Assembly (NCBI GenBank): GCA_002269645.1
Contig: NIVC01002389.1
Span: forward strand, 97,882-161,881
Direction of reading: 5' to 3'
Length of the DNA stretch: 64,000 nucleotides
From: Macrostomum lignano
Taxonomy: Eukaryota
Shown: piece by piece, positions 16,540 to 52,098 of the stretch
Layout: every line of letters begins with the position of its first letter
Position numbering within the stretch: position 1 is the stretch's first letter
The notes under the pieces: model-generated
Seen by the model: only the letters and a program-made list of their open reading frames with translations
Databases searched by the model: none
Told to the model about the DNA's origin: nothing
Made by a program: the position numbers and the translations under genes

Positions 16540-17082
16540 TTTAATTGGCGCCGCTGTAAGGGTTTAATTGGCGCCGCTGTAAGGGTTTAATTGGCGCCAC
16601 TTTAAGGGTTTAATTGGCGCCACTGTAAGGGTTTAATTGGCGCCGCTGTAAGGGTTTAATTGGCGCCGCTGTAAGGGTTTAATTGGCGCCGATGTAAGGG
16701 TTTAATTGGCGCCGCTGTAAGGGTTTAATTGGCGCCACTTTAAGGGTTTAATTGGCGCCACTTTAAGGGTTTAATTGGCGCCGCTGTAAGGGTTTAATTG
16801 GCGCCACTTTAAGGGTTTAATTGGCGCCACTGTAAGGGTTTAATTGGCGCCACTGTAAGGGTTTAATTGGCGCCACTTTAAGGGTTTAATTGGCGCCACT
16901 TTAAGGGTTTAATTGGCGCCACTGTAAGGGTTTAATTGGCGCCACTGTAAGGGTTTAATTGGCGCCACTGTAAGGGTTTAATTGGCACCGCTGTAAGTGT
17001 CTAATTTCGCGCCGCTGTAAGGGTTTAATTGGCACCGCTGTAAGTGTCTTATTAGCGCCGCTGTAAGGGTTTAATTGGCGCC
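16540..17082. repeat. 23-bp tandem array
   Basis: AATTGGCGCC(G/A)CT(G/T)TAAGGGTTT, about 23 copies. Confidence 0.95.
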
Positions 17083-17429
17083 AAAGTTTCGGATAAGCCA
17101 GAATAAGCTCTCAGGCACATTTGAGGGCCTGAGAGTTCTCTCTGTTATAAGTCCTTTGTTCATATTTGGTCAGCAGGTAGAATTCCACTGTCTCTAATTA
17201 ATTAATTGACCCATTCCGACACATTCCATAAATTTGTACCCTTTTTCATTTTGCCTTAATTGCTGATTTATTATTCTTGTTTGTGTGTGACGTTTTTATT
17301 AAATATAAGTTTTCGTTTGCATGACCCAACACCTGCTTTTGCAGTATTTTTCATTATATTATCATTGCCCTAAATTATATTAACATTAAACTGCCCGCTT
17401 AATATATAATAACTACCTGTAAATACCTG

Positions 17430-17558
17430 AGTAGTATGGGATAACAGAACTCTGCCGCAGGAATTTCCGTGGAAAAGCCATGGGCCCTAGTGAGTGAACA
17501 TACGGGCCCATGTAAATCCATTGAGCGACTCTGCCGCAGGGAAAGCCATGGAAATTCC
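17430..17558 (+). repeat. Left terminal inverted repeat of the Polinton
   Basis: Reverse complement of 33227-33355, with 7 mismatches in 129 bp by manual alignment. Confidence 0.95.
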
Positions 17559-17668
17559 ATGGGGGGCACATCGGGTGGGCATGGGGGCCCGGTGAGATAA
17601 CAAAGCGCATGCTGGTATATGTACTGAAGGAAACTCATTATTGCACCCACCCCACTCCGCCTAGAAAG

Positions 17669-17678
17669 TATATATAAG
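17669..17678 (+). promoter_or_regulatory. Candidate TATA box for the PC4-domain gene
   Basis: TATATATAAG about 80 nt upstream of ATG 17753, just inside the left TIR. Confidence 0.4.
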
Positions 17679-17752
17679 ATGGGCGATTTTTTGAGGTTGG
17701 CTTCATGACGAAAGGAATTTTTGTGCATCCTTCTTAAAGAAACATATCATTA

Positions 17753-18481
17753 ATGGATCTCTGTGACGGCTTCAAAGTTCAAGTGCAAGAGTACGAAGGT
17801 CATCGCTTTATTGCAATCCGACGTTTCTTCTCCTCTGAAAGCGGGCTCAGAGCGGGCATCCCTGGCTTTAACCTCAATGCATACCAATGGGAGAAGTTGA
17901 AGCAGCTGAAACGCCAGCTTGTGCACTCGGCAGTCAATCGGCACAGCGTCACAGTCAAGCTTGGCTTTGATAAACTCGTTGTGGTCAGCAGGGGTATCAT
18001 CTGGCTGAAGCGCCTGCCGGAAGACTGTACAGAGGATTATCTGCGGCGGAACTCAGTGGCGCTGACTCCCCGTCTATGGGGAGAACTCTGGAAGAAGGCC
18101 GAGTGGATCGACAACGAGCTGCGAGAGAAGTCGGCGGAGAGTGAGTATCAGCTGGAGGCCGAGGACATCAAGCATGAGGGCCAAGAAACTCTGCCGGTCA
18201 GCGAAGAAGAAGAAGAAGAAGAGAAGAGGCTGCGCATCGTCGAGTCGGACAATGCAACCAGCTCGCCTGTTCTGCCAGAGACTTCAGTCGGGCGCATACC
18301 CCAGCAAGACAGCGACCTGTCGCACGACCCACTGTGGTACCGGTTCCGTGCTGCTTCAGGGCTCGGCAACAGCGGCTGTCACAAACGAAAGCTTCCGTGG
18401 CCCCTGCGCAGGCAAAATGCAATCAAGTTGCCCAAAGTGATCAATGGTGGAGAGGATGGTGACGCAGACAAAAGTGCTTGA
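17753..18481 (+). CDS. Polinton protein with tandem PC4 (transcriptional coactivator p15/ssDNA-binding) domains and an acidic tail
   Basis: FKVQVQEYEGHRFIAIRRFF...GIPGFNLNAYQWEKLKQL resembles PC4 (VREFKGKVLIDIREYW...GRKGISLNPEQWSQLKE). A second degenerate copy ends NSVALTPRLWGEL. AATAAA cluster downstream at about 18607-18620. Confidence 0.75.
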   Translation: MDLCDGFKVQVQEYEGHRFIAIRRFFSSESGLRAGIPGFNLNAYQWEKLKQLKRQLVHSAVNRHSVTVKLGFDKLVVVSRGIIWLKRLPEDCTEDYLRRNSVALTPRLWGELWKKAEWIDNELREKSAESEYQLEAEDIKHEGQETLPVSEEEEEEEKRLRIVESDNATSSPVLPETSVGRIPQQDSDLSHDPLWYRFRAASGLGNSGCHKRKLPWPLRRQNAIKLPKVINGGEDGDADKSA

Positions 18482-18701
18482 TAACTTTTTAAGTGACTAT
18501 GCGTGGACATTGCTATGCCATCTGTATTGATGTCTAACAGTTCTATTTATCCAGCTTTTTCAGCTTATTCATTAATGTCCTATTAAATGAGCTCGTTTAA
18601 AATTAAAAATAAAATAAAATAAGCATCTCTCTCTATAGTTATGCTAGTTTACTGGTGAACTTAAGAATGCGAAATGAGTTTAATTTTTTCTCTAATTAAA
18701 A

Positions 18702-19769
18702 ATGGAAAAGATTTACTTTAACCCTGAGCAGCCAGCAAGCTTTTCTGGCTGCAATAAATTTATTAATGAAGTTCGCACGCAGGGTATCCGAGTGAGTGAA
18801 AAAGCTGCGAAAAACTGGCTTAACGATCAGACAGTCTACACATTACATAAGCCAGCAAGGAGGAATTATCCGAGGGCCCCAATCATAGTTCGAAGTATTG
18901 ATGACCAATGGGAGTTGGATCTGGTGGAGATGATTCCTTTTTCCAAGTATAATAACGGCTACAGGTATATTCTAACATGCATTGATGTGCTGTCCAAGTA
19001 CGGATGGGCGAGGGCATTAAAGAACAAGTCTTCTATTGAAGTGAAGTCGGCATTCGAGAGCATATTAAGAAGTTCAAAGCGGCAACCGCGCACTGTTCGC
19101 ACTGATCAGGGGAAAGAGTTTATCAACTCTACTTTTCGCCAATGCTGTATGGAAAGGGGAATCCTGGCATTCCCAACCAACAGTGAGCAGAAGGCGGCTG
19201 TCATTGAACGATGGAACCGAACTTTAAAGAGCAAAATGTGGCGCTACTTCACTCACAACAGCACTCTGCATTGGCTTGATGTGTTGCCTAAGCTAGTGAA
19301 GTCCTACAACAAAACATACCACAGAAGCATACGAATGGCCCCAACGAATGTCAGCCAGGAGAACGAGTCCGAGGTCTGGATGAGCCTATATGACGGGAAA
19401 GCGATTGAAACTGTGGAAAAGCTGGGAAAGCCAAAGTTCAGCGAAAACCAGTCTGTGCGGATTTCCAATGCACCCAGGCTTTTTAGAAAAGGGTACAAGG
19501 CCAACTGGAGCGAAGAAGTGTACACGGTGGTGTCCAGAGCTCCAAAGCATTATCCCTACATGTACAAGATAAAAGACATGAAAGGAGAAGAGATTCGTGG
19601 GCTTTTTCACGAGCATGAACTGCAGGCCGTTCCGGAGTCGCAGCGGCTGTATGTGATTGAAAAGATTTTGAAGACTGAGAAGCGGCAGGGAAAGATCCGA
19701 TATCTGGTCAAGTGGGCCGGCTACGACTCCACTGACTGGGTGGATGAGAAGGACTTAAGAAAAGTGTAA
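18702..19769 (+). CDS. Retroviral-like (rve) integrase with C-terminal chromodomain
   Basis: DDE triad WELDLVEM / RTDQGKEF / VIERWNRTLK; chromodomain YVIEKIL...YLVKWAGY...WV; intact 355 aa. Confidence 0.95.
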   Translation: MEKIYFNPEQPASFSGCNKFINEVRTQGIRVSEKAAKNWLNDQTVYTLHKPARRNYPRAPIIVRSIDDQWELDLVEMIPFSKYNNGYRYILTCIDVLSKYGWARALKNKSSIEVKSAFESILRSSKRQPRTVRTDQGKEFINSTFRQCCMERGILAFPTNSEQKAAVIERWNRTLKSKMWRYFTHNSTLHWLDVLPKLVKSYNKTYHRSIRMAPTNVSQENESEVWMSLYDGKAIETVEKLGKPKFSENQSVRISNAPRLFRKGYKANWSEEVYTVVSRAPKHYPYMYKIKDMKGEEIRGLFHEHELQAVPESQRLYVIEKILKTEKRQGKIRYLVKWAGYDSTDWVDEKDLRKV

Positions 19770-19799
19770 GATGCCGACATTGTGCAGCCATTCCCAATT

Positions 19800-20609
19800 A
19801 TGAGAAGCATCATCATTAACAGCGAAAATGCTGAAGGTACTCCTGCTGACTTTCATTTTCACCTGCCTTCACCTATTTACTTGGATCGAAATGTGGACTA
19901 TGAGGCAGGTCTGGCTGAAATCCATCTGCCTGCTGCATGGTTCAATGTTGACGAGCCTTACTGCTTCACTGTCTCAGATGGAAGAGAGCATGAGGCCTTG
20001 GTTCTTCAACCCGGACGCTTTGCTAGAGTGGAGGAGTTGGTGGAGCGCATGAATGAGCTGCTGGCCAACTCTGAGTCACTGTTCTTCGATGCAATGAGTG
20101 AGAGGGAGTCTGAAATGGAGGCTGATGAGTCTGGTTTAATGGGGCGGAGCAGCGCTAGAGATATTGGCATAAAGTTTGAGATCCAAGAATTGAGAACGGT
20201 AGTGCTCAACAACACGGCTCGAGCAGAATTATTCCTTCCATCAAGTAAAATTCTGCAGTGGCTGGGATTCGGAAATCAGTCCGTGAAAATTCCACCTGGG
20301 CGCCAAGTTTCCATGTACCACATTGGCTGCCCGCCCACCAATCTGATCAACGTGCATTGTAGCATTGTGGAGTCAACTAATTGCAACTGGAATTCCCTGC
20401 TGCGAACTGTGAACATGAATCCTGAAGCCGGATGGGGAAGCTACTGGAGCAAAGTGTTTAAGAAAACAGTTTTCTTCCCCATTCAGAAAACAAATTTTCT
20501 ACACAGCATTCGAGTTCAACTGCGAGACATCTTTGGCTTCTCACTGACTGCTCATAGCGGCAGCCCTGTTCTGCTCACAATTCTGATACGTGAGAGACCA
20601 ATGCAATGA
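19800..20609 (+). CDS. Minor capsid protein (penton, single jelly-roll)
   Basis: IIINS...ADFHFHLPSPIYL...YEAGLAEIHLPAAWFNV at the N-terminus and LHSIRVQLRDIFG...VLLTILIR at the C-terminus; lies between integrase and the core/MCP genes. First ATG at 19800. Confidence 0.8.
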   Translation: MRSIIINSENAEGTPADFHFHLPSPIYLDRNVDYEAGLAEIHLPAAWFNVDEPYCFTVSDGREHEALVLQPGRFARVEELVERMNELLANSESLFFDAMSERESEMEADESGLMGRSSARDIGIKFEIQELRTVVLNNTARAELFLPSSKILQWLGFGNQSVKIPPGRQVSMYHIGCPPTNLINVHCSIVESTNCNWNSLLRTVNMNPEAGWGSYWSKVFKKTVFFPIQKTNFLHSIRVQLRDIFGFSLTAHSGSPVLLTILIRERPMQ

Positions 20610-21020
20610 ACTATCAGCAGCTGATTCGGCAGTATTCAGGGACTCGGACGGGAAATGAAAAGTCCATGCTCTATGGCTGCGGGAGTTTTCCTGGAATAAT
20701 GACTTACCAGCCTCCTCCAGCACCTTCCATAACATCATCATCATCATTAGCATCAAAGCCTGTACAAACCAGCAGTAGCAGCAGAAGCAATAGTACGAGT
20801 AATAGAAACATAGGAAATCAAGGACAGGCTAAAAAGGTGAATAAAAAGCAGGTGCGCATGAAGAAGAAGAAAAAAGTGGCGAAGCACGCAAAACAAGCAA
20901 GGTCAGAACAAGCAAGCAACCTAAGAAAAGAACGACTAAAACACAGACCAAGAAAACAGGCAAAGAAAACAAAAAGTGGGCAAAGAAACTGTGAAGCGTG
21001 TTCTGGACTCACTCTCATAG
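20606..21020 (+). CDS. Basic putative core/DNA-condensing protein (adenovirus pVII-like); apparent frameshift near the C-terminus
   Basis: K/R-rich C-terminal half. LYGCG matches the adenain cleavage consensus (M/L/I)xGx/G. As read, the frame runs on into the MCP N-terminus; a +1 frame gives ...VGKETVKRVLDSLS* ending at TAG 21018-21020. Confidence 0.55.
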
Positions 21021-21022
21021 CA

Positions 21023-22305
21023 ATGGCTTACGGATTCAACCCGAGACTCGATTTGTTCAAGTCCCCCGTGCTGCAGACTGCTATTGAAAAATCACGTATG
21101 TTGATATTCACCCCGTGAACTCTATTTCTACTAACTCACCAATTGAATTCGACTGCCATCCATCGGCTGATGAGTACACTGATCTGCTGAGCTCATTCCT
21201 GTATATTCGCTGTCGCCTAGTCCGGCTTGGCGGGGCTTTGATGAGGGAGGAGGTTCGGAATGCCGATGGAGTTGTCACTGAGCGCAGAGACAGTGGGGTG
21301 CACCCAGAAAACTTTGTCCTATCTACGGCATTCTCAGATGTAATCGTGAGCATCAACCAGCGCATTGTCTCTGGCGGAGACCAGCTCTACCCCTACCATG
21401 CCTACCTAAAAGCTCTCATGAGCTCATCCGATGCTCAGCAGTTAAATTTCTACCCCGCCGGATTCCTGGAACCCGAAACTGCTGCTGAGGGGCATGCCGA
21501 GAGACACAGGGAGTCCCGCTGGGTGGAGTATGCGGGACCGCTGCTCAGCGACATCTTCCAGTGTCCTGTTCTGCTGCTGAACAATTTACACCTGCACATC
21601 AAGCTGATGCCCAGTGAAGCTGCATTTGCCATCCGAACCCCAGATGAGAACAACACAGCCTACCGAATTGAAATTTCCCATTGTATTCTGAACCTGCGCC
21701 GAGTCAAAGTGGCGCCTCACATCAGCCTAGCGCATGAGCAGGGACTTACCAATCAGAACGCACTTTACCCCATCGAGCGAACCGAAATGCAAAACTTCAT
21801 TCTACCCCAGGGAATTCAGTCAAAAAACATTGAAGGATTCACCCATGGCAAACTGCCGAAGTTCGTTATGCTGGTCTTCGTGAACCACCGAGCCTTCAAT
21901 GGCCATCACCATTCCAGCCCCTTCGAGTTCCAGAGCTTCAACCTCAGCCAGCTAGCACTAAAGAAAGGTGGTGAAGCCATGTGCCACGCTGCATTTGCAC
22001 CTGAGAATAATTCATTCGTGAGAGAGTACTTGCACTACCTGAAAAGCTGTCAGTCTGCCAGCCCTACCAACTCGGTTCCGTGGGTCCCCTACCAGTTGTT
22101 CTCCAACGGCAACACAGCTTTCGCATTCGATCTCACGCCTGAGGGAGCGGCCCTGTGGTACGGACAGAAGGAGGGAAATTTGCGGCTGGAGATTCGCTTC
22201 CGACAGGCCCTGGAGGAGCCTGTATCTCTGATTGTTATGTGCCTGTATGACTCACTGATTGAGGTCACGAAGCACAGGGAGATTCTGCTAGATTTTCCAT
22301 CCTAG
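21023..22305 (+). CDS. Major capsid protein (hexon/double jelly-roll, Polinton PY-like), ~427 aa; 1-nt frameshift at 21111-21114
   Basis: MAYGFNPRLDLFKSPVLQTAIEKS lies in the upstream frame. PIEFDC, YPYHAYLKALM, RRVKVAPH...ALYPIERTE, AFNG...SPFEF, AFAFDLTP and GNLRLEIRF lie in the 21115 frame. One extra C in the CCCC run restores a single ORF. Confidence 0.9.
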
Positions 22306-22328
22306 GAGTACGCTGGCGCAACGCTAAT

Positions 22329-22847
22329 ATGGATGCTTTTCAACTGCTTAAACTGGCTAAAAGCTTTTTGCCACAAAATAACTATTTAATTATTGTCTTG
22401 AATTCAATAAATAAAACATCTTATGCTTTAAACTTTATTCAGCGAGCAACTCTCAAAAGAAATTTATCTCGATGTAGGTTTATTTTCTTTCTGCTTCAGT
22501 ACGGCTCGTCCTTTGGTCACTGGGTGGTTTGTTATGCCAATAAGGAGAATTCCATAGAACTCTTTAACTCTCTGGGCTGGGACTCAAGCACTTTAGAGAT
22601 CATTCACAGAGCACTGAAATCCTTTTGGTATTCTCCATTCTACTTACGTAGCAATGTGAATCGAATTCAGAGCTGCAACTCTGCTAAATGCGGTTTGTTC
22701 TGTCTCTTGTTTGCCTATCAAAAGTTTCGTTTCAAGCGCTCGTTTGAGTGGGTTCTGCGGCACCTCCATGCAAATCAGCAGAGCCACTTGAATGAAAGAA
22801 TTCTGCAAAGGTTTGAGAGTTGCTTAAGAAAAAATAAATTTAATTAG
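22329..22847 (+). CDS. Adenain-like cysteine (maturation) protease
   Basis: GHWVVC...ELFNSLG...RIQSCNSAKCGLFC (catalytic His and Cys, oxyanion Gln). Confidence 0.88.
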   Translation: MDAFQLLKLAKSFLPQNNYLIIVLNSINKTSYALNFIQRATLKRNLSRCRFIFFLLQYGSSFGHWVVCYANKENSIELFNSLGWDSSTLEIIHRALKSFWYSPFYLRSNVNRIQSCNSAKCGLFCLLFAYQKFRFKRSFEWVLRHLHANQQSHLNERILQRFESCLRKNKFN

Positions 22848-22880
22848 ACTTTTAAAATCAAGGATTTAGCTCAACAGGCG

Positions 22881-23534
22881 ATGGAAACACGTGAGCGGAT
22901 AAACTGTTATGATGTGCGCCTGCGACAAGGAAGCTGCATGATTGTCAGCGGGCCTACAAATGCAGGAAAGACAACCTTCGTGAAACATCTGATACAATAC
23001 AAGGATGTCATGTTTGATGTGAAGCCTGGGAGAGTTCTGTGGTACTACGGAATTTCACAAGCAGCACACTCTGAGCTCAGCAGTCTCGGCGTGCACTTGC
23101 AGCAGGGATTTCCCAGCAGTATCGAGACCGCACTGAGACCCAATGACCTGGTTGTATTTGATGACCTGATTGAAGAAACTTCCAATTCTGCTGCAATGCG
23201 AAATGTTTTCACTGGAATTGCCCATCATTTGCCCTGCTTTCTGGTTATGCTGACCCAAAATGTATTTTTTAAAGGGAAGGAGTTGCGAACAATGAGTCTG
23301 AATGCGATGTACTTTGTGATCATGAAGAACCCCAGAGACCAGCTGCAGATTGCGGCGCTGGGCAGGCAGTGTTTTGCTGAGAAGCCCGGCTTTCTGCTGT
23401 CAGTGTTCAAGCACGTGACATCGCACGGCAGGGGAGCCTACCTGCTCCTGGATTTTCACCCTTCCACCCCTGATGAGCTGCGGGTCCGGGCTCGAATCCT
23501 GCCCAATCAGCGACCCCACCTGGTTTACACTTAA
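22881..23534 (+). CDS. A32/FtsK-HerA family DNA packaging ATPase
   Basis: Walker A GPTNAGKT, Walker B LVVFDDL, AHH and LTQN motifs, SLNAMYFVIMKNPRD. Confidence 0.95.
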   Translation: METRERINCYDVRLRQGSCMIVSGPTNAGKTTFVKHLIQYKDVMFDVKPGRVLWYYGISQAAHSELSSLGVHLQQGFPSSIETALRPNDLVVFDDLIEETSNSAAMRNVFTGIAHHLPCFLVMLTQNVFFKGKELRTMSLNAMYFVIMKNPRDQLQIAALGRQCFAEKPGFLLSVFKHVTSHGRGAYLLLDFHPSTPDELRVRARILPNQRPHLVYT

Positions 23535-23581
23535 GAATAACAGCCGAGATTTTGCCATTTGCTCTATATTCTGCAACACTA

Positions 23582-23899
23582 ATGATAATGGAAACATTCG
23601 ACTCACATGAAAGTTTGTTTGATGTTCTCGCCTCACCGAAATATTCCATCAGCTTTAAACGTCTGTTGATCAGAGCGGGTCCAAAAGCAGTACATGAATT
23701 TCTCATTGAGGCCTGCTATAACCTATTGCAAAACACTCTGTCGTTCTCACTCACTGAAAAGGCAGCGCTAGTGAAGCAAAAGCAAATAATCCGCAAAATT
23801 TCTACACATAGAAGAGCTGCGGATCTGCTAAATACGGGTTTTATCAAAATTCTCTACATTCTAATAAAGCTAGTGAAGAAAAAGAAACAAAATGAATAA
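23582..23899 (+). CDS. Conserved small Polinton protein of unknown function
   Basis: LIEACYNLLQNTL...KAALVKQKQIIRKI pattern and its position after the ATPase; first ATG at 23582. Confidence 0.65.
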   Translation: MIMETFDSHESLFDVLASPKYSISFKRLLIRAGPKAVHEFLIEACYNLLQNTLSFSLTEKAALVKQKQIIRKISTHRRAADLLNTGFIKILYILIKLVKKKKQNE

Positions 23900-24584
23900 G
23901 TTCTCAGAAATGGTTCTGATCCCCAAGTCAGAATACGACATGCTCACACAGAATTTGAAGCCAGTTGAGTCTGAACTCGACACTGCTGTGAGATATGCGC
24001 AGAGGAAATGCAATGATATTTTGCTTGCCGAGGATTGCCCAGACGATGTGAAAGCTGCCATGTACCATGATGCGATGAAGAGTTTGCTGGCCAAGCGCAA
24101 GCGGACTGGAAAGGATGATGCGGTACCTGCGAGTGATGCAAAGATGCTGAAAACTGATATTGCACCAAGCAGCTGGGGGGAAAAGATCACCCAATCCGTG
24201 CCGCAGAAGTTTAAAGCGAGAGCCCGCAGTCTATGGGCCATCCTATCTGGCAATCCTTCTCTGATTCGGGTGTCCGAAAATGGCGAGGCGCAAATTTGTG
24301 GGAAGACAATACCCTCCTCAAACATCCTGGATTTGTTTCACAGTGCCGTGAGGGATTCGAAATGTGCCAGCGAGCCGGTGGGCTGGAGTGAGTTTGTCTC
24401 ATTGCTCCAAGATAAAAAGCTTAACATCCCAGCTTCGGCCATAGGAAAGTCAGTTAGGCAGCTAATTTCTAAACCTGCTGTTTCTCCAGAGGCCGCCCCT
24501 GCTCATCATACAGTTAAAGGATTCGGGAGTGGGAGAGCTTGGCTACAGCTGAACAGGAAAAAACTATTTAAGAAGGGGAACTGA
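23892..24584 (+). CDS. Conserved Polinton protein of unknown function (possible virion protein)
   Basis: MVLIP N-terminal motif, ENGE...GKTIPSSNILDLF, and C-terminal VKGFG (possible protease site) followed by W; overlaps the upstream ORF by 8 nt. Confidence 0.65.
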   Translation: MNKFSEMVLIPKSEYDMLTQNLKPVESELDTAVRYAQRKCNDILLAEDCPDDVKAAMYHDAMKSLLAKRKRTGKDDAVPASDAKMLKTDIAPSSWGEKITQSVPQKFKARARSLWAILSGNPSLIRVSENGEAQICGKTIPSSNILDLFHSAVRDSKCASEPVGWSEFVSLLQDKKLNIPASAIGKSVRQLISKPAVSPEAAPAHHTVKGFGSGRAWLQLNRKKLFKKGN

Positions 24585-24624
24585 GTCGGCTTCCCGATAT
24601 CAGGCATCTTGAAACCATCCGATC

Positions 24625-25470
24625 ATGAACTATATTGACTTCCAAGGCTTCCCACGCGAGAGATCGAGCAGAGATTTCGTTGTGAAGGAGCTAGCCATTG
24701 CCCAAGTCCGGGCAGGCAGTTACCATATCACTCATCACGTGTACGCCTCTCCGTTCTCATGGGAGCGAATCTCACCTGAGATGCAGGTGCATTACAGAAA
24801 GCTCTCAAAGAATTTGCATCATTTCAAGTGGACAGATGGATCCCGATCGTACATGCATTTGGCAAATGACATTCTAAACATTGCTTACGGCCCCACCTGG
24901 ACAAGCGGGGTGAAAAAGTCCATCTTTCTGACTGAGCTGCTTGGCAGACAGGTGTACAACCTAGAGGATCTGGGATCACCTTTGATTCAAGCATCTGATA
25001 CTGGTTGTGCAGTGAAAAATGTATTGCTCTACTACAACTGGCTGAAGCCAAAGTTCTGTATCAACTTAAGAAGCGAGGTGTGCCCGCACCACTCAAAGGC
25101 TCTCAAAGACAGCACCACTGACAGAAAGGACTCTCTAAATGAGTACACCTGCGACAGCCCTGCGAGTGACCAATCTGGTTGGCGGCGTGGATCTGAGGCT
25201 GGCTGGAGGCAGGGGTGCCCAGTTGCCTCTGCGGGAACTGGCTCTCAGCATGGCTCATGTCATCTATCGCCCCGTCTGGCCCCGAGTGCTCATCAAGAGG
25301 ATGCGGAATCCCAGAGTGACTCTGTTGCTCTATCCGACTGGACAACTGAGTATCTGTGGCGCCCGGAGCTACTCGGCCTCAGTCAAGGCTGCCCGTCGCT
25401 TCGTGGCTATGCTGCATCGCAGAGTTCCGCCTCAACTGCTGCCTCGTCAATCCGTTTGTGTCCGAATTAA
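24625..25470 (+). CDS. Polinton accessory protein, probable RNase H/DEDD-exonuclease-like fold in the first ~140 aa
   Basis: YIDFQGF...FVVKELAI...HHFKWTDG...KSIFL...VYNLEDLG...CAVKNV..YYNWL. The last ~110 codons overlap the TBP-like ORF. Confidence 0.5.
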   Translation: MNYIDFQGFPRERSSRDFVVKELAIAQVRAGSYHITHHVYASPFSWERISPEMQVHYRKLSKNLHHFKWTDGSRSYMHLANDILNIAYGPTWTSGVKKSIFLTELLGRQVYNLEDLGSPLIQASDTGCAVKNVLLYYNWLKPKFCINLRSEVCPHHSKALKDSTTDRKDSLNEYTCDSPASDQSGWRRGSEAGWRQGCPVASAGTGSQHGSCHLSPRLAPSAHQEDAESQSDSVALSDWTTEYLWRPELLGLSQGCPSLRGYAASQSSASTAASSIRLCPN

Positions 25471-25705
25471 GACTATTACTGCTTATGGAAAAATAGACTT
25501 GCCCAAGGCTCTATCACTAAGAAACCTCTGTGAAGTGCTACCGAATGCGAAATATGAACCTGAAAGTTTTACTGCTTTAGTTTGTCAGCTTCAATACTGC
25601 AAGTGTACGCTTTTTCACAATGGCTCATTTGTGCTCAGCGGAGCAAAGTCTAAGCATATGCTACAATCAGACCGTTCCCTATTAGCTTGCTTGCTTTCAA
25701 ACTGA
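25139..25705 (+). CDS. TATA-binding-protein (TBP)-like protein, complete two-repeat core, 188 aa
   Basis: Repeat 1: LRVTNLVGGVDL...RMRNPRVTLLLYPTGQLSICGARS...AARRF (TBP: LQNIVSTVNL...[24 protein letters not shown]...AARKY). Repeat 2: YEPESFTALV...TLFHNGSFVLSGAKS (TBP: YEPELFPGLI...LIFVSGKVVLTGAK). AATAAA signals follow the stop. Confidence 0.85.
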   Translation: MSTPATALRVTNLVGGVDLRLAGGRGAQLPLRELALSMAHVIYRPVWPRVLIKRMRNPRVTLLLYPTGQLSICGARSYSASVKAARRFVAMLHRRVPPQLLPRQSVCVRIKTITAYGKIDLPKALSLRNLCEVLPNAKYEPESFTALVCQLQYCKCTLFHNGSFVLSGAKSKHMLQSDRSLLACLLSN

Positions 25706-26265
25706 AATAAATAAAAAGAAAGAATAAATCGCGGCTTGTTTAATTAAAATATTCAAATTAATTCTCTCTCATGCACTAGCTTTTTTGTCTTCATTTTTAA
25801 TTGCAATGAAAAACCAGTGGTGAACATCTTGTAGAGATAAACAAATAGCAAGCTAAAAGCAAATACGAGCAAGCAGATAAACCACTACAAAAATAGGAAA
25901 AAATAGTCCAAAAGCAGATGGAATATATTAAAACTTATAAAGCAATATCAGGATTCAAAAAACCAACCACAAAGTACAGGTAAAATTAGAAAAAAATAAA
26001 ACTCTCACATGCCATCACCGCAAACACCACCACCACCACTAACGAAGCATTGGTTTCATTATCATCATCGCGCAATTGTAAGTAAATATTGTGAAGCAAA
26101 AAATTGTTGCTAGCCTCAGCAGATGATCAAAGTTTTTATTGCATGCGGAAAAAATCCTATTTAGATTAGCGGTTAACCTTTATTCAATGTCAAAGAAAGA
26201 AACTTTGAAATCGCAAAGAAATTATTGTTTTTGTTTAGCAAGCTTGTTGTACTCATTATTCAATT

Positions 26266-26353
26266 TCAAAGTAGTCGGCGCCGTTTTGATGATTTCTGCT
26301 GCTGTTGCTGCTGCTGCTGTTGTTGTTGTTGTTGTTGTTGTTGCTGCTGTTGC

Positions 26354-26422
<69 letters not shown>

Positions 26423-29400
26423 AGCAGCCGAATGTGACCAAATGGGAGACTATAGTTAGGGCTCAGCCAAGCGCGCTTGTCTTCCCAAATGCTTAAGGCA
26501 CACTTCCGCTGCTGCAAAGTGTACAGTCGGTGATGGATGCTGGCAATACGATGAACAACGACAGAATGGCTGCAGAGCTCATTGAACACCCTTAGGTAGT
26601 CACTGTGAGCCAGCTCTTTCTTAACAATGCATCCTTGAACTCCTTTGGCCTTCTTCTTTTCCGCGGCTTGGCTACTCGCCTTGAATGAGTAAAGCTTCGG
26701 CCTTAGGAGCAGCCACTCCTCAAAGCGAGCACCGGCTGCTTCATCCTTAATGCAGCCAAGTCGCGCTTTTAAATCATTCGAGAATAGCGCGTGCTCTTGA
26801 GGATAGTTTGAAGTGTCGAGCAGCTGCTTCGACTTCAACAGCGGTAGAACTTTAGACTGAACGCTCATGTTGCTGATTGAGAGAAAGAAAGAATCGGTAT
26901 CACCACCGCATAGCTTGATGACACCTCCATCGTTCTCTATCCAGGGCTTCAGTTTGTCGTAAAACAGCTCGTACATAATCATTTTCGAAAAGTCTAGGAC
27001 GCATTGCCCGATAAAAATAGGCCGATCGAGCTTTAATTTTGTCTTTTGCAGTTCCAAAACGCTTAGTGAATCAGTAATTATGATAAAATTGGTAATTGTC
27101 GGCTTGGCAAGCAGTACCTTTACCTTTTCCACGTTGGTGCAGACTCGAATATCACGCCGCTTTCGCACATTCTCCATAGTTTTGCCGAATAGCGCGTTAT
27201 TCTTTAACTTGTAGAAATCCTTTTCGAAGTTGGTTTTCGCTGCAGCCCGCTTCTGGCTATTTTTCTCGACGTAGGCAGCAAAGAGAGGCTCTTGGTGAAA
27301 CTCAATCATGCGATTGATGCGTCTAACCCGCATTCCATGGTTCAGGTAGAACGCCAAAATAGAGGAATGAACCACATAGGAAGGCTTATCGTGACAAGTG
27401 AGCATCAGCTTCTCTGTCGGATGATAGGTGGAGTTCTCCGTACCGACCTTTTCCCACAGCTGCTGCATGTATTCAGGAAATTCCCTGAAATTCGGGGCAG
27501 CCTTTTCCGGTGCAAATGGTAGGTCTTCGGTGGTTTCGTGAATCTCTGGGGGATACTCAAGGTCAACATCAAAGAGGTAGGCGAGTGGATCGGTTAGCTT
27601 GAGTCCTCGAATGCGATCTTCAGTCCACAAAAGCAGCTCATCATCGTCCAGCCAACGGAATCCTCCGACTGGTAAGTTCATAGTGAGCGCCTGTCCATAC
27701 AGGTTGTTTGCATCCACAGCAAGAAGCTCGGTGAGGCCAGCATGAATAGTAGGAGTGCCACCATCAACATCCTCATTGCTGTCAACACCAGTGCTGGCGC
27801 CCGCTGCTGAGGTAGCCTGCACTTTGTGGATGTTAACAAACGACATGCCGCCGCGAATGCCGCGCTCAAACAGCGAATACATCTGCGCATCTGTTAGCAG
27901 TTCAATCCCTGACTTGATGGATTTCAATGCCGAAGCGAATGATAGGCCTGGTGTCGAAATAAAATGGACTGGATCAAGGCCATCCTCTTGCATGCTGATC
28001 TTGCGAAAATTTTCAAAAATATCAGCCAACTGCCTGATGTCGAGCTCGAGGTAGCACAGCATGTACTCTTTTAGATTTGAAACCTGAAATTCTCGCCAGG
28101 CGCGTTGAGCATGCTCATAGTCAGAGTTGGTGCAGTGGCTCTTAGTCAGAGCATTGTAGAAGCTCTCTTGGCTGGGAAGCACGGCATCCTTCAGCACGTC
28201 TGAATTTTTAAGATAGTCATACGGGAAAACTCCCTTGCTGAAAAGCACTTCGGATGATAGCAGTGGGAATCTGCTGCTGCGTAGGCGACTAGTGATACGA
28301 CATTCAGCCTCTGGTAAATTTTTGATGAGCTGTGAGAGGCTGGCATTAAGAAATTGATTCGAATCAATGAACTGAATAGTAAAATTTAAAGGCTTGATCT
28401 TGCCCTCACTCTCATACTCGCCGATTTTAAATTCGATTTTCATCGACAGAAACTGCTCTGGATTCAGAGGGATGACGGAGATTTTCCAACCCTCCATCAG
28501 ACCCAAAGCGGATGACATCATGAGATGGAGATCGTACCCCTTGAAATTGTGGAACACGACGGGAAGGAAAGACCTCTTTAGTCTGGCCTTCATATTACAA
28601 TCAGCACACGCAGCTCCCCGAAATTCTCCGCTGAGGTGGTCGTGATCCCAATGTTTATTGGACCCTTCCGTGAATTCGCTTCTACAATAGCAGCAAGCTG
28701 TGGCTTCTCTGAACTGTCGCCCTGCCATCTCTGTTCTTATCGCTGCTTGTCGACTGAACTCCGTGTTCCAGCCGTAAACTTCACGAGCGAGCTTCTCCAG
28801 CGATTGCAGGAAATCGGAAATGCACTTATTAGGATCGTCGCTGACAAAAGTGCTCACTTTATCATCCGCTCCTCTGGGCGCTAGACCAGTCATCCCTTCT
28901 CTGTGCAGCACGATGTAGCCAGCAGCAACAGCAATGTGCTCAGTTAACTTCTTCGTTGCTATACCAGCAATCGAATCTTCTTGGCATGGAGCATTCAATG
29001 CTTCGAAGTCGGCGTAAACAACAAATGGCGGACTAATTGTTTTTTCCCATGATGAGAATCGGAGAATATTATTCCTTTCATCTGGCAACTCTTCCTTGAC
29101 GTTGATCACTCCAGGTTGACAAGGAGCTCGGCTGTGTTCTTCAAAGGCTGCATCACTATGAAAGGGCAGCAAGCAGCGCTCACACCACTTCCGCCGATGC
29201 AGAGCTGCCTTGCTATTAAGAAGCCTGTTGATGCTTGAAACAGCACACCAATGACCCGAGGCCTCGTCTTCTGATGGTGGAATAAATAAGAGTAGAACAA
29301 CTTCTCGATCTTTAATTGTAGCTGCAGTAGGCAAGCGGAGGACTTGAGCGCTCTCTTTCTCCCAGATGAAAACCGTGAAGCAAAGTCTCGGGTTCAGTCT

Positions 29401-30578
29401 CTCAACAATGGAAAGGTCGGTGACATTGATTGGCAAGTCAATTCCACTCATGTTAAGTTCATCCAGCCAGTCAGTGTAGGAAGACTCGCGTTGCGCTGAT
29501 TTCTTTATTTTGTTGTCTTCCTTGTGCAGAAAAGCAAGGCATGCGTAAAGAAAGCAATTTACACCATTGCTTGGAGGACAAATAACCGCCTTCTTCCGAA
29601 GAAGTGGAGTCGGTAGAATAAATTCCGCAGCATGCCCCGTGTAGTAGGAAACTCGTTCGACGAGAGCTGAGTAAAGTTCAAAAAAATTGATTTTTTCAAT
29701 TATCCAGCCACTACCGTTGGTGTTGTAGACATCGACTTTGCGCTCCAGCTCTGTAAACTGCTGTCTCCACCAATCATCAAACTCCTGTATATCTACCACC
29801 AATCCGAGTTGTGTGCTCATCCATTTATCCTCCCCCTTGACAGCTTCTGACGCCTGCACTCTGACCATGCGCAAATTCAGTTTGATCTGAGCTTTAACAG
29901 AGCAATTATCCGAAGAGTCGAAGCGAATTTCAAGACACTGCTGCACTGCGATTTTGCAGAAATCGAGAAACTCGAATGTTTCAGTGGCAGCTCCAGGTGT
30001 AAATCGATGAACTTGAAGAACATCTTCGTGAGCGCTGGTTTTTAACGCCAGGGTGAATGAAGGTCCTACAATTGAAGAAGGGAAGATAGTATTAAAAATA
30101 TTTATGGAAAGTGGAAATGATGAGAAATGTCTCTGGGAGTTATGGAAGTCGAATATTTTATTGCCCTTTTTTACACTTACGAGTATACTATTTATCCTAC
30201 TACCTTATATCTAGATTTAATATTTTTTTATTAATCAATACGAGCTACGTATAAGTGTAAAAAAAGAATTTGAAGAGTTATTATTGAAGAAATAGATGGA
30301 GTTCTGCTTTCGCATTTTTGTCAATTCATCTAATGAGGAATAAAAATGTCTCATTATTGTGAGTTCTCCGGCTTAATCCTGTTGGGAACCATTTGGGAAT
30401 TGTTGTGTAGGCGAGAAAAATATAAATAATTCCGTTGCTAAGAGACAGGAATGCAACAAACAGAAATGCATGAGTTCATAAAACCAGCAATGGAATGAAA
30501 AAACTTACCACTCGGTCCAAATTCGTGGCTGACAGCTGGGTCCACCGGCTCGTCCTCTTGACTCGATGAGGTGGCCAT
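26266..30578 (-). CDS. Protein-primed family-B DNA polymerase (pPolB); 2 exons (30578-30509, 30065-26266), ~1289 aa
   Basis: Exonuclease motifs YADFE, FHNFKGYD and ELDIRQL; polymerase motifs DANNLYG, KLKNNALFGK, GDTDS, RPKLY and KAKGV; endonuclease-VII-like DHDHLSGEFRGAACADCN. The frame stays open upstream of 29946 through a TTGTAG acceptor, and a phase-1 ATG exon ending G|GTAAGT joins it in frame. Confidence 0.93.
26296..26421. repeat. CAG/CAA trinucleotide tract encoding C-terminal polyQ of pPolB
   Basis: About 42 codons, almost all Gln, immediately after the conserved LPFGH end motif. Confidence 0.95.
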
Positions 30579-31269
30579 TACAGAGAATTAATATTAGAAA
30601 TAGAGCGACATTTAGTGAAGAACTCAATGCTGCTGAAATTCCAGTGTAAAAGTGTTGTTTGATAAATTTAACCCAAGTGCAATTCTGTCAGAGATGTAGT
30701 GGAGTGATAAATTTCCAGCATTCAGAGCTCTATGGAGCAGAAATTGAATCTAACCAAAGTCATGCTTGACAAACCAAATTCATGTCATTCTAAACATTGG
30801 GTATCATAGATCATCAATCCCATATTATACTCATAGAGTTGAGTAGATGCTGTGAACCTAACGGTAATTCTATAAGCGAGTGAACCTATAACTTCTTCGA
30901 AGATATTCACATGATTGAAAAAAAAAAACAAGTAATGAATTCAACAAAGTCCAAGAAAGTGCAAAAGCTTTCATTAAAAGCAACCATCAATCCATTATAT
31001 TTCTGGTAAAGCATTTCGCAATGCAAAAAATCATGCTCGTTAGTCACCCTACTAATTAAAGCTGCTTATTAAAGCTTTATTATAAGAATAAGTTTGAACA
31101 GTAAGCCTAAATTATTTTCTTTTTCACTTTGTTTATGAGAAACCTGTATGAGCACGATGAGGTGCAACGTAATTAGTTAATATTTATGCAGGGTAGAATG
31201 CATTGGTTTTACCCTAAAAATCTACAAATCTCGTTTCCCCTACTTTTAAATACTTTGAACTGGGACACT

Positions 31270-32418
31270 TTAAGAGCTACTTAAGCGAATGCGAGTTCCT
31301 CCCCCAAGGTCAATAAAATACTCGCCCTCGACTCTGCTCGGTAGTACCAGCTGAATGCAGACTGACGGTGGCATCGGTGGCATGGCTTCTACGACTGGGA
31401 TGTCACCGGTTTGGATTTCTGGTGCAGCCGGTGGAGTAGGAGGTTCGAATTCTCGCAGGAGATCGGATAGGCTTGCTTCTGCCATCATTCTGGCTTGCTC
31501 CATATTTTTTCCTGCGACTGGAACAGGCCTGTAGGGTGGCATCTGTTGCTGCTCAGCTTCTTCATTTGCCAGCTCAACAGGCTCCAAATCGACATCCTCG
31601 AAGAAGGCAGTATCCAACTCCGAAGGAGCTGCAAAACCAGTGGAATCGTCAGCTGGGAGGCCGGCATCAGCAGTTGGAAGGCCGGCACTGTCAGCTGGGA
31701 GGCCGGCATCAGTAGTTGGAAGGCCGGCACCGTCAGCTGGGAGGCCAGCATCAGTAGTTGGAAGGCCGGCACCGTCAGCTGGGAGGCCGGCATCAGTAGT
31801 TGGAAGGCCGGCACCGTCAGCTGGGAGGCCGGCATCAGTAGTTGGAAGGCCGGCACCGTCAGCTGGGAGGCCGGCATCAGTAATTGGAAGGCCGGCACCG
31901 TCAGCTGGGAGGCCGGCATCAGTAGTTGGAAGGCCGGCACCGTCAGCTGGGAGGCCGGCATCAGCAGCTGGCGCAGCGGTTGAACCAAAAAAATCTGATT
32001 GCTGCTCCACAGCGGCAAGTGCAGCGGCAAGCAGATCAAAGTTTGCATCGGTAGCGTGCTGAAAATCTTCATCAGGCTGCTGAAAGACGCCCTGAATTGT
32101 CTGGCTGAGTGCGCTGACCGGTGCTCGACTGCGCTCGATAATGTTGAGCTGCTCTTGACGCTGGGCAGCCTCCAAGGCAGCAAAGCGGGCTCGTTTTAAA
32201 TCTCCAGGTGAGCTCCAGTTAATAATAATGTGGTTTTTGTGAGCTCGAACTTGCTGGCGCACATTAAAGAGCTCACGCGTCTGGCACTCGTGGCAAAGCA
32301 GCCAGCGACTGACATTGCAGCTGCTTTTCATTTTGTGACGTTTTAAGCCACCGAGCTCACATGAGTTGCAGGAAATGCATACCTCGTACACATATGAAGG
32401 GCAGCGCGATTTATTCAT
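31270..32418 (-). CDS. Polinton accessory protein: Cys-rich N-terminus with LxCxE, 14-aa repeat, acidic/Pro-rich C-terminus
   Basis: 382-aa ORF starting with ATG. CISC/CHEC pairs, LLCHE at aa 40-44, (ADGAGLPTTDAGLP)n, and LSDLL near the C-terminus. Confidence 0.7.
   Translation of the reverse strand: MNKSRCPSYVYEVCISCNSCELGGLKRHKMKSSCNVSRWLLCHECQTRELFNVRQQVRAHKNHIIINWSSPGDLKRARFAALEAAQRQEQLNIIERSRAPVSALSQTIQGVFQQPDEDFQHATDANFDLLAAALAAVEQQSDFFGSTAAPAADAGLPADGAGLPTTDAGLPADGAGLPITDAGLPADGAGLPTTDAGLPADGAGLPTTDAGLPADGAGLPTTDAGLPADGAGLPTTDAGLPADSAGLPTADAGLPADDSTGFAAPSELDTAFFEDVDLEPVELANEEAEQQQMPPYRPVPVAGKNMEQARMMAEASLSDLLREFEPPTPPAAPEIQTGDIPVVEAMPPMPPSVCIQLVLPSRVEGEYFIDLGGGTRIRLSSS
31648..31966. 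repeat. In-frame 42-bp (2x21-bp) coding tandem repeat
   Basis: GTCAGCTGGGAGGCCGGCATCAGTAGTTGGAAGGCCGGCACC, about 7.5 copies. Confidence 0.95.
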
Positions 32419-32559
32419 TCCAAATTTTTTAATGTTTGAATAGAAAAATCAAATTGAAGTTAAATTCAAATTAGAAGTAGAAACTTATGTCCCGTATTCA
32501 AGTATACGGTGTCTTATATACCTCGCTTATTCGAATCTGTGTTAATAAAAACATAGCCG

Positions 32560-32605
32560 CTATGTTTACAGCTTAGCTATGTTTACAGCTTAGCTATGTT
32601 TACAG
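32560..32605. promoter_or_regulatory. Triple forkhead-type motif repeat (17-bp period)
   Basis: CTATGTTTACAG at 32560, 32577 and 32594, 140-190 nt upstream of the ATG at 32418. Confidence 0.45.
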
Positions 32606-33226
32606 TCAGTAACCCAGCCGTCTCAGAAACCGGTTTTTTAAAATAATTTTATTAGAAAACCCAGATACAGAGCCTCTATTGAAAGCATACATGTACAAAA
32701 GTTCCTTTGCACTTGCCGCCAACTGGAACTCCCGACCAGACTGGGGAGCAATAAAACTGATAATTATTGAGCGTCCAATTCCATTTAGCAACACACCCAC
32801 CACCCCAAGAAAGGGGGAGATGCTTGGCTATTATAATCTTATTAAAGCAGCATCTTGTTATTGAAACTTTTGCCTAATTAATAGGCAAAAGTTTCAATTA
32901 ATTCCAAAATTCCAAAATCCTTAAATTCCAAAATCAAGTGATTTTTCAACAGTTGGTAGCTCAAATTTTAGACATGAATTGCAAATTGATTTTATTGTAA
33001 TCATTGAAATAAAGACACGCCCCTCCTCCTTTTACGATACCCGATGGAATATTAAATGTCATTCAGAAGCAAAGCATTGCCTGGTTTTATGAACCGAACC
33101 GCCTGTGTCCGTCGTAGCAGAACACGCATTTGCCAATACTCATTCATTGCGGTTAACGGAATTCCCGCGGAGCCCCAACCCATTCGCAAATACTTGCACC
33201 AATGTACTCTCACTAGGAGGTCTCAC

Positions 33227-33355
33227 GGAATTTCCATGGCCTGCCCTGCGGCAGAGTCGCTCAATGGATTTACATAGGCCCGTATGTTCACTCACTAGGG
33301 CCCATGGCTTTTCCACGGAGGTTCCTGCGGCGGAGTTCTGTTGTCCCATACTACT
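33227..33355 (-). repeat. Right terminal inverted repeat of the Polinton
   Basis: Ends ...CCCATACTACT and is followed by the TSD TACCTG. Confidence 0.95.
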
Positions 33356-33679
33356 TACCTGTAACGATACGCATCGCGCGAACCGGTTTTGCGGTGAAAC
33401 TAAAATATTTTGTACTTTAATTTCGACTTTTTTCCTTGTGGCTTCTCATCAACAATGCGAGATGATTCACGAGCTACGAGTTTCTATGTCCCCTTTGTTG
33501 CCTTCCTATTGTGCTTACGTATATTGATTTTAGTACTGTCAGCTCCATCAATTGTATTCTCGAGGTCAAAATTACAGGAACTGCTGCGATGTATTTAGGT
33601 ATTCATTATTAAGATATTAAGATGCTTTCGGTTGATGAAATTTCTTGTACTAGCTTGCCGCGGCTAATGGTGAGGGATC

Positions 33680-34060
33680 TTGGGAAGCGGAGGTAAGGAT
33701 GTGGGATCTGGGAAGCGAAGGTAAGGGTGAGGAATCTGGGAAGCGGAGGGTAAGGATGAGGGATCTGGGAATAAGAGGTTAGCAGCGGGCTAAGGATGAG
33801 GGATCTGGGAAGCGGAGGTTAGCAGTGGGCTAAGGATGAGGGATCTGGGAATAAGAGGTTAGCAGCGGGCTAAGGATGAGGGATCTGGGAATAAGAGGTT
33901 AGCAGCGGGCTAAGGATGAGGGATCTGGGAATAAGAGGTTAGCAGCGGGCTAAGGATGAGGGATCTGGGAATAAGAGGTTAGCAGCGGGCTAAGGATGAG
34001 GGATCTGGGAATAAGAGGTTAGCAGCGGGCTAAGGATGAGGGATCTGGGAAGAAGAGGTA
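33680..34060. repeat. 40-bp minisatellite
   Basis: GGATGAGGGATCTGGGAATAAGAGGTTAGCAGCGGGCTAA, about 7 near-perfect copies plus a degenerate left end. Confidence 0.95.
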
Positions 34061-34781
34061 CGCTCGTAGCTTCGCTAAAACGACAATTAGCAATCTGTAA
34101 CGAAGTTAAAGTTCTGATCTTAAGTATATACACGAATAAATCCTAAAACTTGTGCAGCACACGAAGCTTTATTTACTGTACATCATATGTATATCGTTTC
34201 CCAGTGGCTATGCGCTTTACTTTTGTCTGTCATAAAAACTGTCATTGTCTATACCCAAAAGCCACCTTCATAGCATTAGGAAATAGGATCGCGTACGAGT
34301 ACATTTTAGTGGCTCAGTCAGCTGGCTCTCTGAGCTTGGGCGCCAAGAATTAGCTATACTGTTCCTACCCAAAAATATTCGCTTCTTACAGACTTACAGC
34401 ACTACATTCCCAAATTCTTCTCATTATAATTATGTGAGCGTATGCAGTGTCTGCAGCTATCCTGCACTCCGTTTACTATATTGAATAGACATTCCGTTTT
34501 AATGGCAATTTTTGCTACACGATTCAAGTTGCTGATACTTTTTGTATTAAATATAATGAAAAGGGAGATGATTTTATCAAAGCATCCAGCCATTGCAGCC
34601 AGGAATGATTTACTGACAATATTTTGTCTGTATCATCTCTATTTGTTAGTTTTTTGCTATTTTAAGATGCATTTATAGTTAATTCTTTATTAAGTGGTTG
34701 AGTAAGCTACATGTACGTAAATTCATCAAGAATTAGACAACTTTTTTGCGTCGACGGACTTCTCTAAGTTTTCTACACAAG

Positions 34782-35718: not shown

Positions 35719-36131
35719 TCAAAGACCTACCAGGCCACCCCAAGAAAACCCAAAGTATTTCACAAGTATACAACAACAACAACACGGTCAGCGTCACAGG
35801 GTCCGCCTCAGGGCCAGGTCGTGAACGAACACCACGCCGTCGGCCGAATCCGGAGCTCCGTCGTTAGCGAGCAGGCAGTCGGCGAAACGCCGAGATCGCG
35901 CCTGTCCGCACACCGCCGAGGTAGACGAACTGCTGACAACGCGGAAGCTCTGTCGCCTTTCCATCAGCACTTCGGCACAAAATTGCACGCCGGCACAGTA
36001 CGACGGTTTTCTGCGTGTTGACAACGAGGCGGACACTCGCCGCAACATCAAATGTAGTTTTTTGCAGTTGTCGCTGGGCGCATTCGACAGTTGAGGACAG
36101 CAGAGGGCGAGATCGTCGACATATAGCCAAC

Positions 36132-51039: not shown

Positions 51040-52098
<1,059 letters not shown>

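Follow-up and report, generated by a model that had tools for sequence, protein, structure and literature searches.

The window analyzed here is a 64,000-nt stretch of the genome of the flatworm Macrostomum lignano (assembly GCA_002269645.1, contig NIVC01002389.1, positions 97,882 to 161,881 of the forward strand). It contains a Polinton/Maverick element of 15,926 bp at 17430-33355, and the interval 17424..33361 takes in both of its target site duplications (TSDs). The assignment to the Polintons is close to certain. Five of their seven defining features were found, namely a protein-primed DNA polymerase B (pPolB), an rve integrase, terminal inverted repeats (TIRs) with a TSD, a major capsid protein (MCP) and an adenain-type protease, and none of the seven failed. 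The termini were judged by TIRs of 46-1500 bp, an AG-type end motif and a TSD of 5-8 bp. The original prediction had described a Polinton/adintovirus-like element with AGTAGT termini, 129-bp TIRs and a TACCTG TSD. Profile, homolog and fold matches to pPolB, the integrase with its chromodomain, the protease and the MCP bear out this identity, and the termini are as described, with TIR arms differing at seven positions. Overlooked in that reading were genes for a TATA-binding protein (TBP), a PC4-like protein and an Oncoid-like protein, a predicted pPolB intron, and a motif, TTAAGAA, upstream of genes. The core of the element is ordinary; the family-conserved TBP and the statistically solid TATA-like motif of the inner genes set it apart.

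The TBP gene is the last in the plus-strand order of PC4-like, integrase-chromo, penton, core-like, MCP, protease, ATPase, PM-like, PZ-like, an open reading frame (ORF) starting at 24625, and TBP. AATAAA signals stand directly after its stop codon (25706, 25723). The ORF matches the Pfam TBP family in two stretches (1.3e-22) and 35 distinct PDB sequences (best 8e-17). A model built from a nine-sequence alignment has a pLDDT of 92 and TM scores of 0.74-0.84 to solved TBPs, at 20-25% identity in the structural alignment. The two-repeat saddle fold is present by Pfam, PDB and model. The second repeat keeps both intercalating Phe residues (F144 and F159) together with the TFIIB-binding EPE loop, and a small insertion follows the first strand. 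The canonical TATA-binding residue set is incomplete, with two of the four intercalating Phe and one of the two central Asn kept. Archaeal TBPs score best among outside TBPs, which is probably an effect of divergence. The Atlas clusters nearest to 25139-25705 likewise hold TBP domains; their labels are partly nematode, partly chordate and partly viral, and some of these TBPs may ride other mobile elements.

Five close TBP relatives were found at 66-94% identity, two of them Macrostomum lignano models. Among 778 TBP matches in a representative library, five reach 1e-30 (98, 68, 84, 85 and 48% identity), and those that follow are at about 30%. Both repeats are kept in five near full-length relatives, in which N12, V14, E140-P141-E142, F144 and F159 are invariant. 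The DNA-face replacements W47, P48, Y65, S71, C73, T112 and K155 are likewise invariant in all six aligned family members, down to 46% identity. Moreover, the M. lignano gene model P0019 carries MCP, ATPase, PZ and TBP segments in the order of the window (90, 62, 59 and 77% identity), and P0021 combines TBP with a stretch that matches the Oncoid-like ORF in antisense. This linkage indicates that TBP is a regular gene of the element family and no one-off insertion. One of 11 MCP matches is also a Macrostomum lignano model, as are three of the top five among 30 pPolB matches. The closest named homologs of both TBP and pPolB thus being models of this animal, the invertebrate lineage proposed in the original prediction is upheld.

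A first look at 6-mers within 150 nt upstream of 13 starts placed TAAGAA on top, with eight of 13. TTAAGAA is the best 7-mer within 110 nt upstream of the 11 plus-strand genes, where it precedes six, and a count of six was reached by none of 5000 random-window nulls and none of 5000 shuffles. Six of the eight TTAAGAA copies in the gene block lie inside upstream windows that cover 14.9% of the block (P = 2.4e-4). For upstream widths of 60, 80, 100, 150 and 200 nt, dinucleotide nulls did as well in 0, 0, 0, 0 and 2 of 600 cases for 7-mers and in 0, 0, 0, 0 and 1 for 8-mers. The element has ten copies on the plus strand against two on the minus strand, and the 48 kb outside it has six and seven. 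The sites use all three codon phases, plus one intergenic position. Their usual spacing from the start codon, 41-73 nt, would suit a TATA-like site with short 5' untranslated regions. The two terminal genes, PC4 and the Oncoid-like ORF, are without an upstream TTAAGAA, and both carry canonical TATATAAG boxes, at -84 and -102. A short repeat, CTATGTTTACAG, occurs in three copies with a 17-bp period at 32556-32605, immediately upstream of the right-end TATA box, and is a possible enhancer. Splice acceptors upstream of 11 starts score no better than those at 149 other ATGs (P = 0.29).

The coordinates of all features are collected in the table.

Table. Genes, promoter-like sites and termini of the Macrostomum lignano Polinton/Maverick element, in window positions
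Feature	Position	Strand	Basis or remark
Left TSD, TACCTG	17424..17429	.	read in sequence
Left TIR, 129 bp	17430..17558	+	begins AGTAGT; holds internal subrepeats
Canonical TATA box (TATATATAAG)	17669..17678	+	84 nt upstream of PC4 ATG
PC4/p15-like single-stranded DNA-binding or coactivator protein, 242 aa	17753..18481	+	Pfam PC4 E 8e-5, 22.5 bits (cutoff 25, not reached); PDB PC4 E 0.005
TTAAGAA	18661..18667	+	41 nt before integrase ATG, intergenic
rve integrase with C-terminal chromodomain, 355 aa	18702..19769	+	PF00665 (rve) 1.8e-12, Chromo 3.3e-5; DDE residues visible
TTAAGAA	19755..19761	+	45 nt before penton ATG
Probable minor capsid protein (penton), 269 aa	19800..20609	+	position, size, Atlas lead
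TTAAGAA	20458..20464	+	148 nt before core ATG
Basic core/PW-like protein, 23% K+R	20606..21020	+	one adenain-type site, LYGCG; PW name by position (PMC8097293)
Motif variant CCTAAGAA	20920..20927	+	103 nt before MCP ATG
Double-jelly-roll MCP, gene broken once	21023..22305	+	homologs 77% and 76% identical; fold match
Adenain/Ulp1-type maturation protease, 172 aa	22329..22847	+	Pfam Peptidase_C5 23.8 bits (cutoff 21.3, passed)
TTAAGAA	22824..22830	+	57 nt before ATPase ATG
P-loop ATPase, probable genome-packaging ATPase, 217 aa	22881..23534	+	Walker A/B in sequence; 62% to segment of Macrostomum model P0019
TTAAGAA	23531..23537	+	51 nt before PM-like ATG; overlaps ATPase stop
PM-like ORF, 105 aa	23582..23899	+	named by position; gene order as PMC8097293
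PZ-like ORF, 230 aa	23892..24584	+	59% to segment of P0019; adenain-type site VKGFG near C-terminus
TTAAGAA	24568..24574	+	57 nt before 24625 ORF ATG
24625 ORF	24625..25470	+	overlaps TBP gene by 332 nt
TTAAGAA	25066..25072	+	73 nt before TBP ATG
TBP homolog, 188 aa, both repeats	25139..25705	+	Pfam TBP, PDB, fold model
pPolB, main exon	26266..30065	-	Pfam DNA_pol_B_2 and Endonuclease_7; domain order from PMC11161782
Predicted pPolB intron, 443 nt, phase 1	30066..30508	-	GTAAGT ... TGTAG; sequence prediction
Predicted pPolB first exon, 70 nt	30509..30578	-	sequence prediction
Oncoid-like ORF, 382 aa	31270..32418	-	paired CxxC, one LxCxE (residue 40), 21/42-bp repeat; Oncoid definition in PMC8502044
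Canonical TATA box (TATATAAG)	32513..32520	-	102 nt upstream of Oncoid-like ATG
Right TIR, 129 bp	33227..33355	-	ACTACT ending at 33355
Right TSD, TACCTG	33356..33361	.	read in sequence

From the integrase to TBP the genes are mostly spaced by -8 to 47 nt. The PM-like and PZ-like ORFs share 8 nt, and translation of the latter may be coupled to that of the former. The unaltered 3' ORF of the MCP gene was modelled with nine homologs (pLDDT 79.7), and the model matches the capsids of iridovirus, Sputnik, mavirus and PBCV-1 at Foldseek E values of 5e-14 to 5e-13. Among bacterial and archaeal genomes, 63 pattern matches to the MCP were obtained and none was confirmed as a relative. The protease keeps His64, Gln114 and Cys121 and has Asn80 at the position where an acid is usual. 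This Asn may be characteristic of the lineage, or it may be a lesion. The Atlas features of the penton are at 0.97-0.98 to Preplasmiviricota and Sputnik V18/19 clusters, with a recognition value of 2288 that does not reach the guide of 2300, and its ORF has no Pfam or PHROG match. The ATPase has Walker A and B at the canonical position but no packaging-ATPase (FtsK/A32-type) family match in Pfam, PHROGs or PDB sequences. Searches of PDB sequences with the 24625 ORF, the protease and the ATPase gave nothing significant, and a PHROGs search with 11 element proteins gave a single weak P-loop match. The 24625 ORF, which has no database match, presumably resembles a DEDD-type exonuclease; gene model P0020 is 100% identical to it over 219 aa and may be the same locus. 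The penton, packaging ATPase and core are assigned less firmly than pPolB, the integrase, the protease and the MCP. Complete replication and virion modules had been predicted, and this stands for these latter four proteins and less firmly for the former three.

The pPolB on the minus strand consists of a putative terminal-protein-like N-terminus, vOTU-type Cys and His motifs, an exonuclease with an EndoVII/HNH insert, the palm and a poly-Gln tail. Exo I-III and Pol A-C motifs are all visible, and the PF03175 match is above cutoff, though weak at 52 bits. Full-length homologs are 48-50% identical, and Endonuclease_7 is present in 11 of 30 homologs. A pPolB without an OTU domain was considered and rejected on the sequence and on PMC11161782. 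Assignment of the HNH insert to the nematode/oomycete pPolB2 clade was not adopted, as that clade falls within Group 2. The pPolB frame is open for 112 codons upstream of its first ATG. Besides the predicted intron, an alternative join would start from a GC donor, likewise of phase 1, that lies within the Oncoid-like ORF (31325), and the automated M. lignano models P0168, P0171 and P0172 make this join; P0171 and P0172 also hold segments homologous to the Oncoid-like ORF. An in-frame CAG/CAA microsatellite at 26290-26430 (-) encodes the long poly-Gln tail, which is followed by a basic C-terminus and is absent from P0168-P0170. The 21/42-bp tandem repeat of the Oncoid-like ORF lies at 31600-32010 (-), and sibling models have a different repeat in the same protein.

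The coding capacity of the element is nearly intact, as the original prediction stated: no premature stop was found in 3,830 codons of 11 ORFs, a set picked as open frames that leaves out the core ORF, the 24625 ORF and the 5' MCP piece. Of the one or two homopolymer frameshifts also proposed, one break is definite. Homologs match the MCP gene over 21023-21115 in one frame and over 21088-22302 in another, placing the break at about 21087-21097; a run of five A adjoins it and may contain it. Two more lesions are possible. The core ORF reads through, in frame, into the beginning of the MCP, with the stop of another frame 2 nt before the MCP ATG, which allows a second break, and the overlap of the 24625 ORF with TBP may reflect a lost stop in the former. 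Unless the MCP break is an assembly error, this copy cannot form capsids by itself and would depend on the capsid of a sibling. The suggestion that the element may be recently active or reactivatable is conjectural.

The TIR arms pair across 129 bp with seven mismatches, six of them transitions (5.4% divergence). Had this divergence accumulated by ageing after insertion, 10-13 premature stops would be predicted, or 4-5 when the lower 95% bound is taken, with P = 0.004-0.015 for seeing none. The absence of stops caps neutral decay at about 0.6-0.8% per site. TIR divergence was therefore rejected as an age clock, and its mismatches probably predate the insertion, because the stops expected from it are not seen. 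The intact frames support a recent integration. Internal subrepeats allow five mismatches to be polarised by eye, and all five fall on the right arm (P ~0.06, weak); such a right-arm bias (33227-33355) hints at recombinant or unequal ends.

A repeat finder reported the TIR pair as 132 nt at 94%, the longest among the 29 inverted pairs of the window. GC content is 46.0% in the element and 42.3% and 45.1% in the flanks. No second copy of the element and no solo TIR was found by blastn within the window. The insertion lies between tandem arrays, about 1.55 kb past the stop of a host PDZ-SH3-guanylate-kinase gene, the pieces of which (MAGUK p55-type) are at 12080-15874 (+), left of the element. 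The target site (17414-17429, 33356-33365) is part of a short tandem duplication, where TACCTGTAAA stands before the left TSD and TACCTGTAAC opens the right flank. A Gypsy-like gag-protease ORF (zf-CCHC, aspartyl protease, PNMA) is found at 36048-37817 (-), 2.7 kb right of the element, and a SPATA2 PUB-like domain in the ORF 47341-48165 (-). Two further inverted repeat pairs, 40261-40319/42565-42623 (59 nt, 83%) and 5496-5562/6223-6289 (67 nt, 81%), may mark the termini of ancient non-autonomous DNA transposons. The host sequence is rich in minisatellite arrays with periods of 8-40 bp (175-1222, 2024-2976, 12559-13546, 16425-17114, 33668-34099, 51171-52000, 53254-54084, 58021-58700 and 62541-63596).

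The element resembles known Polintons/Mavericks (Polintoviricetes; PMC8097293, 10.1101/2023.08.22.554363) in its size of 15.9 kb, against 13-25 kb reported, in its AGTAGT ends, TIRs and 6-bp TSD, in the pairing of pPolB with an integrase, and in the gene runs INT-mCP-PW-MCP-PRO and ATP-PM-PZ. Unlike in those Polintons, both gene runs are on one strand, TBP and PC4 genes are added, and the TTAAGAA motif is common to several genes of the element. The predicted pPolB intron also differs from intact vertebrate Mavericks, which are reported to be intronless (PMC8097293). With Beta adintoviruses, as defined in PMC8502044, the element has in common a PolB whose vOTU-type motifs and weak PF03175 match may place it in the divergent OTU-bearing class, an integrase with a chromodomain, an adenain, and an Oncoid-like LxCxE/CxxC ORF upstream of PolB. 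From these definitions we infer a placement as a Beta-adintovirus-like provirus.

The TBP itself agrees with the cellular TBP/TRF family and the TBPs of large DNA viruses in its saddle fold, two repeats, EPE loop and both Phe of the second repeat. TBPs occur in such viruses as the nucleocytoplasmic large DNA viruses, mirusviruses and nimaviruses. It differs from solved TBPs in its identity of only about 20-25%, in the replaced DNA contacts of the first repeat and in the insertion after the first strand. The closest functional analogy is offered by BcRF1 of Epstein-Barr virus, which reads TATT late promoters (PMC4922670). In the late initiation complex of beta- and gamma-herpesviruses, as in the arrangement proposed here, a viral TBP-like protein reads a non-canonical TATA word at structural genes and relies on host RNA polymerase II (Pol II). 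That complex consists of six proteins of a large virus, whereas a lone two-repeat TBP in a 16-kb element, with evidence at the level of genes, is found here. A TBP label is found in PMC8502044, where it stands only in the Fig. 5 legend, and in its preprint 10.1101/697771; among midsize linear DNA viruses a TBP is thus not without precedent. The supplement text of PMC8502044 (one file, possibly incomplete) has no match for TBP, TATA, PC4 or Macrostomum, and a term search of the accessible text of the preprints 10.64898/2026.10.13.758929 and 10.64898/2026.06.19.733378 found neither TBP nor TATA. A literature search outside subscription papers, Repbase and figure images found no description of Macrostomum Polintons and no animal Polinton described as having a TBP or the TTAAGAA motif.

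We consider a two-tier transcription on host Pol II, with a TBP private to the element, the best explanation for this arrangement, and judging from sequence we give it an even chance of being right. In the first tier, host TBP would open the terminal TATATAAG promoters, and thereby express PC4 and the Oncoid-like ORF, perhaps with spliced pPolB. In the second tier, the element TBP, with its remodelled DNA face and intact EPE loop, would bind YTTAAGAA ahead of the integrase, capsid, ATPase and accessory genes and recruit host Pol II to them. The motif ahead of the TBP gene itself would add positive feedback and, plausibly, a switch between latent and active states. Protein-primed replication from the TIRs, integrase-mediated insertion with a 6-bp TSD, and capsid assembly with protease maturation would follow established Polinton biology. 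The more specific proposal, that a specificity-shifted TBP of a flatworm Polinton lineage acts as a self-amplifying early-to-late switch through a private TATA variant, YTTAAGAA, is tentative and falls somewhat short of an even chance.

Several observations weigh against the two-tier explanation. The 110-nt upstream window was picked after the first look at 150 nt, and 6-mers are weaker than 7-mers at two of the five widths, with 11, 0, 13, 1 and 0 of 600 dinucleotide nulls. No TTAAGAA lies within 200-300 nt upstream of the protease, PZ and pPolB genes. The MCP has the variant only, at -103, and the core site is far, at -148; one further TTAAGAA stands in the middle of the integrase gene and two are antisense in pPolB. 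The linkage of TBP to other copies of the element rests on automated gene models. In the TBP, the first-repeat Phe are replaced by Pro48 (with Trp47 adjacent) and Tyr65, and the second Asn by Thr; with the canonical first-repeat DNA contacts and the second Asn lost, the protein may not bind DNA. Moreover, we take the TATA variants T(-30) and G(-26) to map, as single changes, onto YTTAAGAA. Wild-type TBP has been crystallised on both (titles of 1qna and 1qn5), and since it tolerates each of them singly, host TBP might read the motif.

This last point leads to the strongest alternative, which is unlikely but a serious contender: the motif may be read by host TBP/TRF or another host factor, with the element TBP having no specific DNA binding and acting instead, as decoy or modulator, by titrating TFIIB, NC2 or Mot1. 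The terminal TATA boxes likewise end in TAAGA, and the combination of altered first-repeat DNA contacts with an invariant EPE loop is what a decoy might look like. The invariance of the DNA-face replacements in all six family members nevertheless fits a new specificity better than decay, and a single host factor leaves the contrast between canonical boxes at the ends and variant boxes inside unexplained.

Two other readings are improbable. In one, a co-infecting large DNA virus would supply the RNA polymerase, and the motif would be a TAAG-type late initiator for it; the element would then be virophage-like and its TBP incidental or directed at the helper. The motif contains TAAG, the core of baculovirus late promoters, and mavirus shares promoter motifs with its helper virus. 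Adintovirus virions have also been co-purified from baculovirus-infected insect cells (PMC8502044). The conserved word TTAAGAA is however longer than TAAG, and a predicted spliceosomal intron, canonical TATA boxes and AATAAA signals together indicate host nuclear Pol II. No helper virus was seen in the window, and none was sought elsewhere. The other reading, to which we give equally little credence, makes the inner genes one polycistronic unit resolved by spliced leader (SL) trans-splicing or alternative splicing, with the motif as an RNA-processing or translation signal. The tight spacing of the genes from the integrase to TBP, the strong AATAAA after TBP, and good splice acceptors ahead of the MCP, protease and 24625 ORF conform to this, and in M. 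lignano SL trans-splicing affects about 30% of genes, while 15% of genes are in operons (PMC8629364). Acceptor scores before starts are not raised, though, and the motif is unlike a branch point or an acceptor.

That the element is an ordinary decaying Polinton, in which TBP just rides along and Lys/Arg-rich gene ends gave rise to the motif by chance, is very improbable: the 5.4% TIR difference could be read in this way, and so could the several sites that fall on Lys/Arg codons toward the 3' end of the ORF upstream (LRKV, LRKN, FKKG), but composition-preserving nulls fail to reproduce the motif, its sites use three codon phases and an intergenic position, TBP is conserved across the family down to 46-48% identity, and the stops that ageing predicts are missing.

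On how animal Polintons switch on their genes, with or without help, the accessible text of the papers cited here, which deals with capsid genes and selection, gives no promoter logic. Without its TBP and motif, the element would be an ordinary near-intact Polinton. With them it supplies candidates for both a factor and a cis-site, in what is probably a laboratory regeneration model, for which genome and transcriptome data are available. If the two-tier explanation is true, the protein would be a naturally re-specified TBP, and small integrating DNA viruses could privatise Pol II initiation. The more specific self-amplifying switch, if true, would provide the first concrete mechanism for the latency of animal Polintons and the control of their capsid genes, convergent with the BcRF1/TATT system of herpesviruses.

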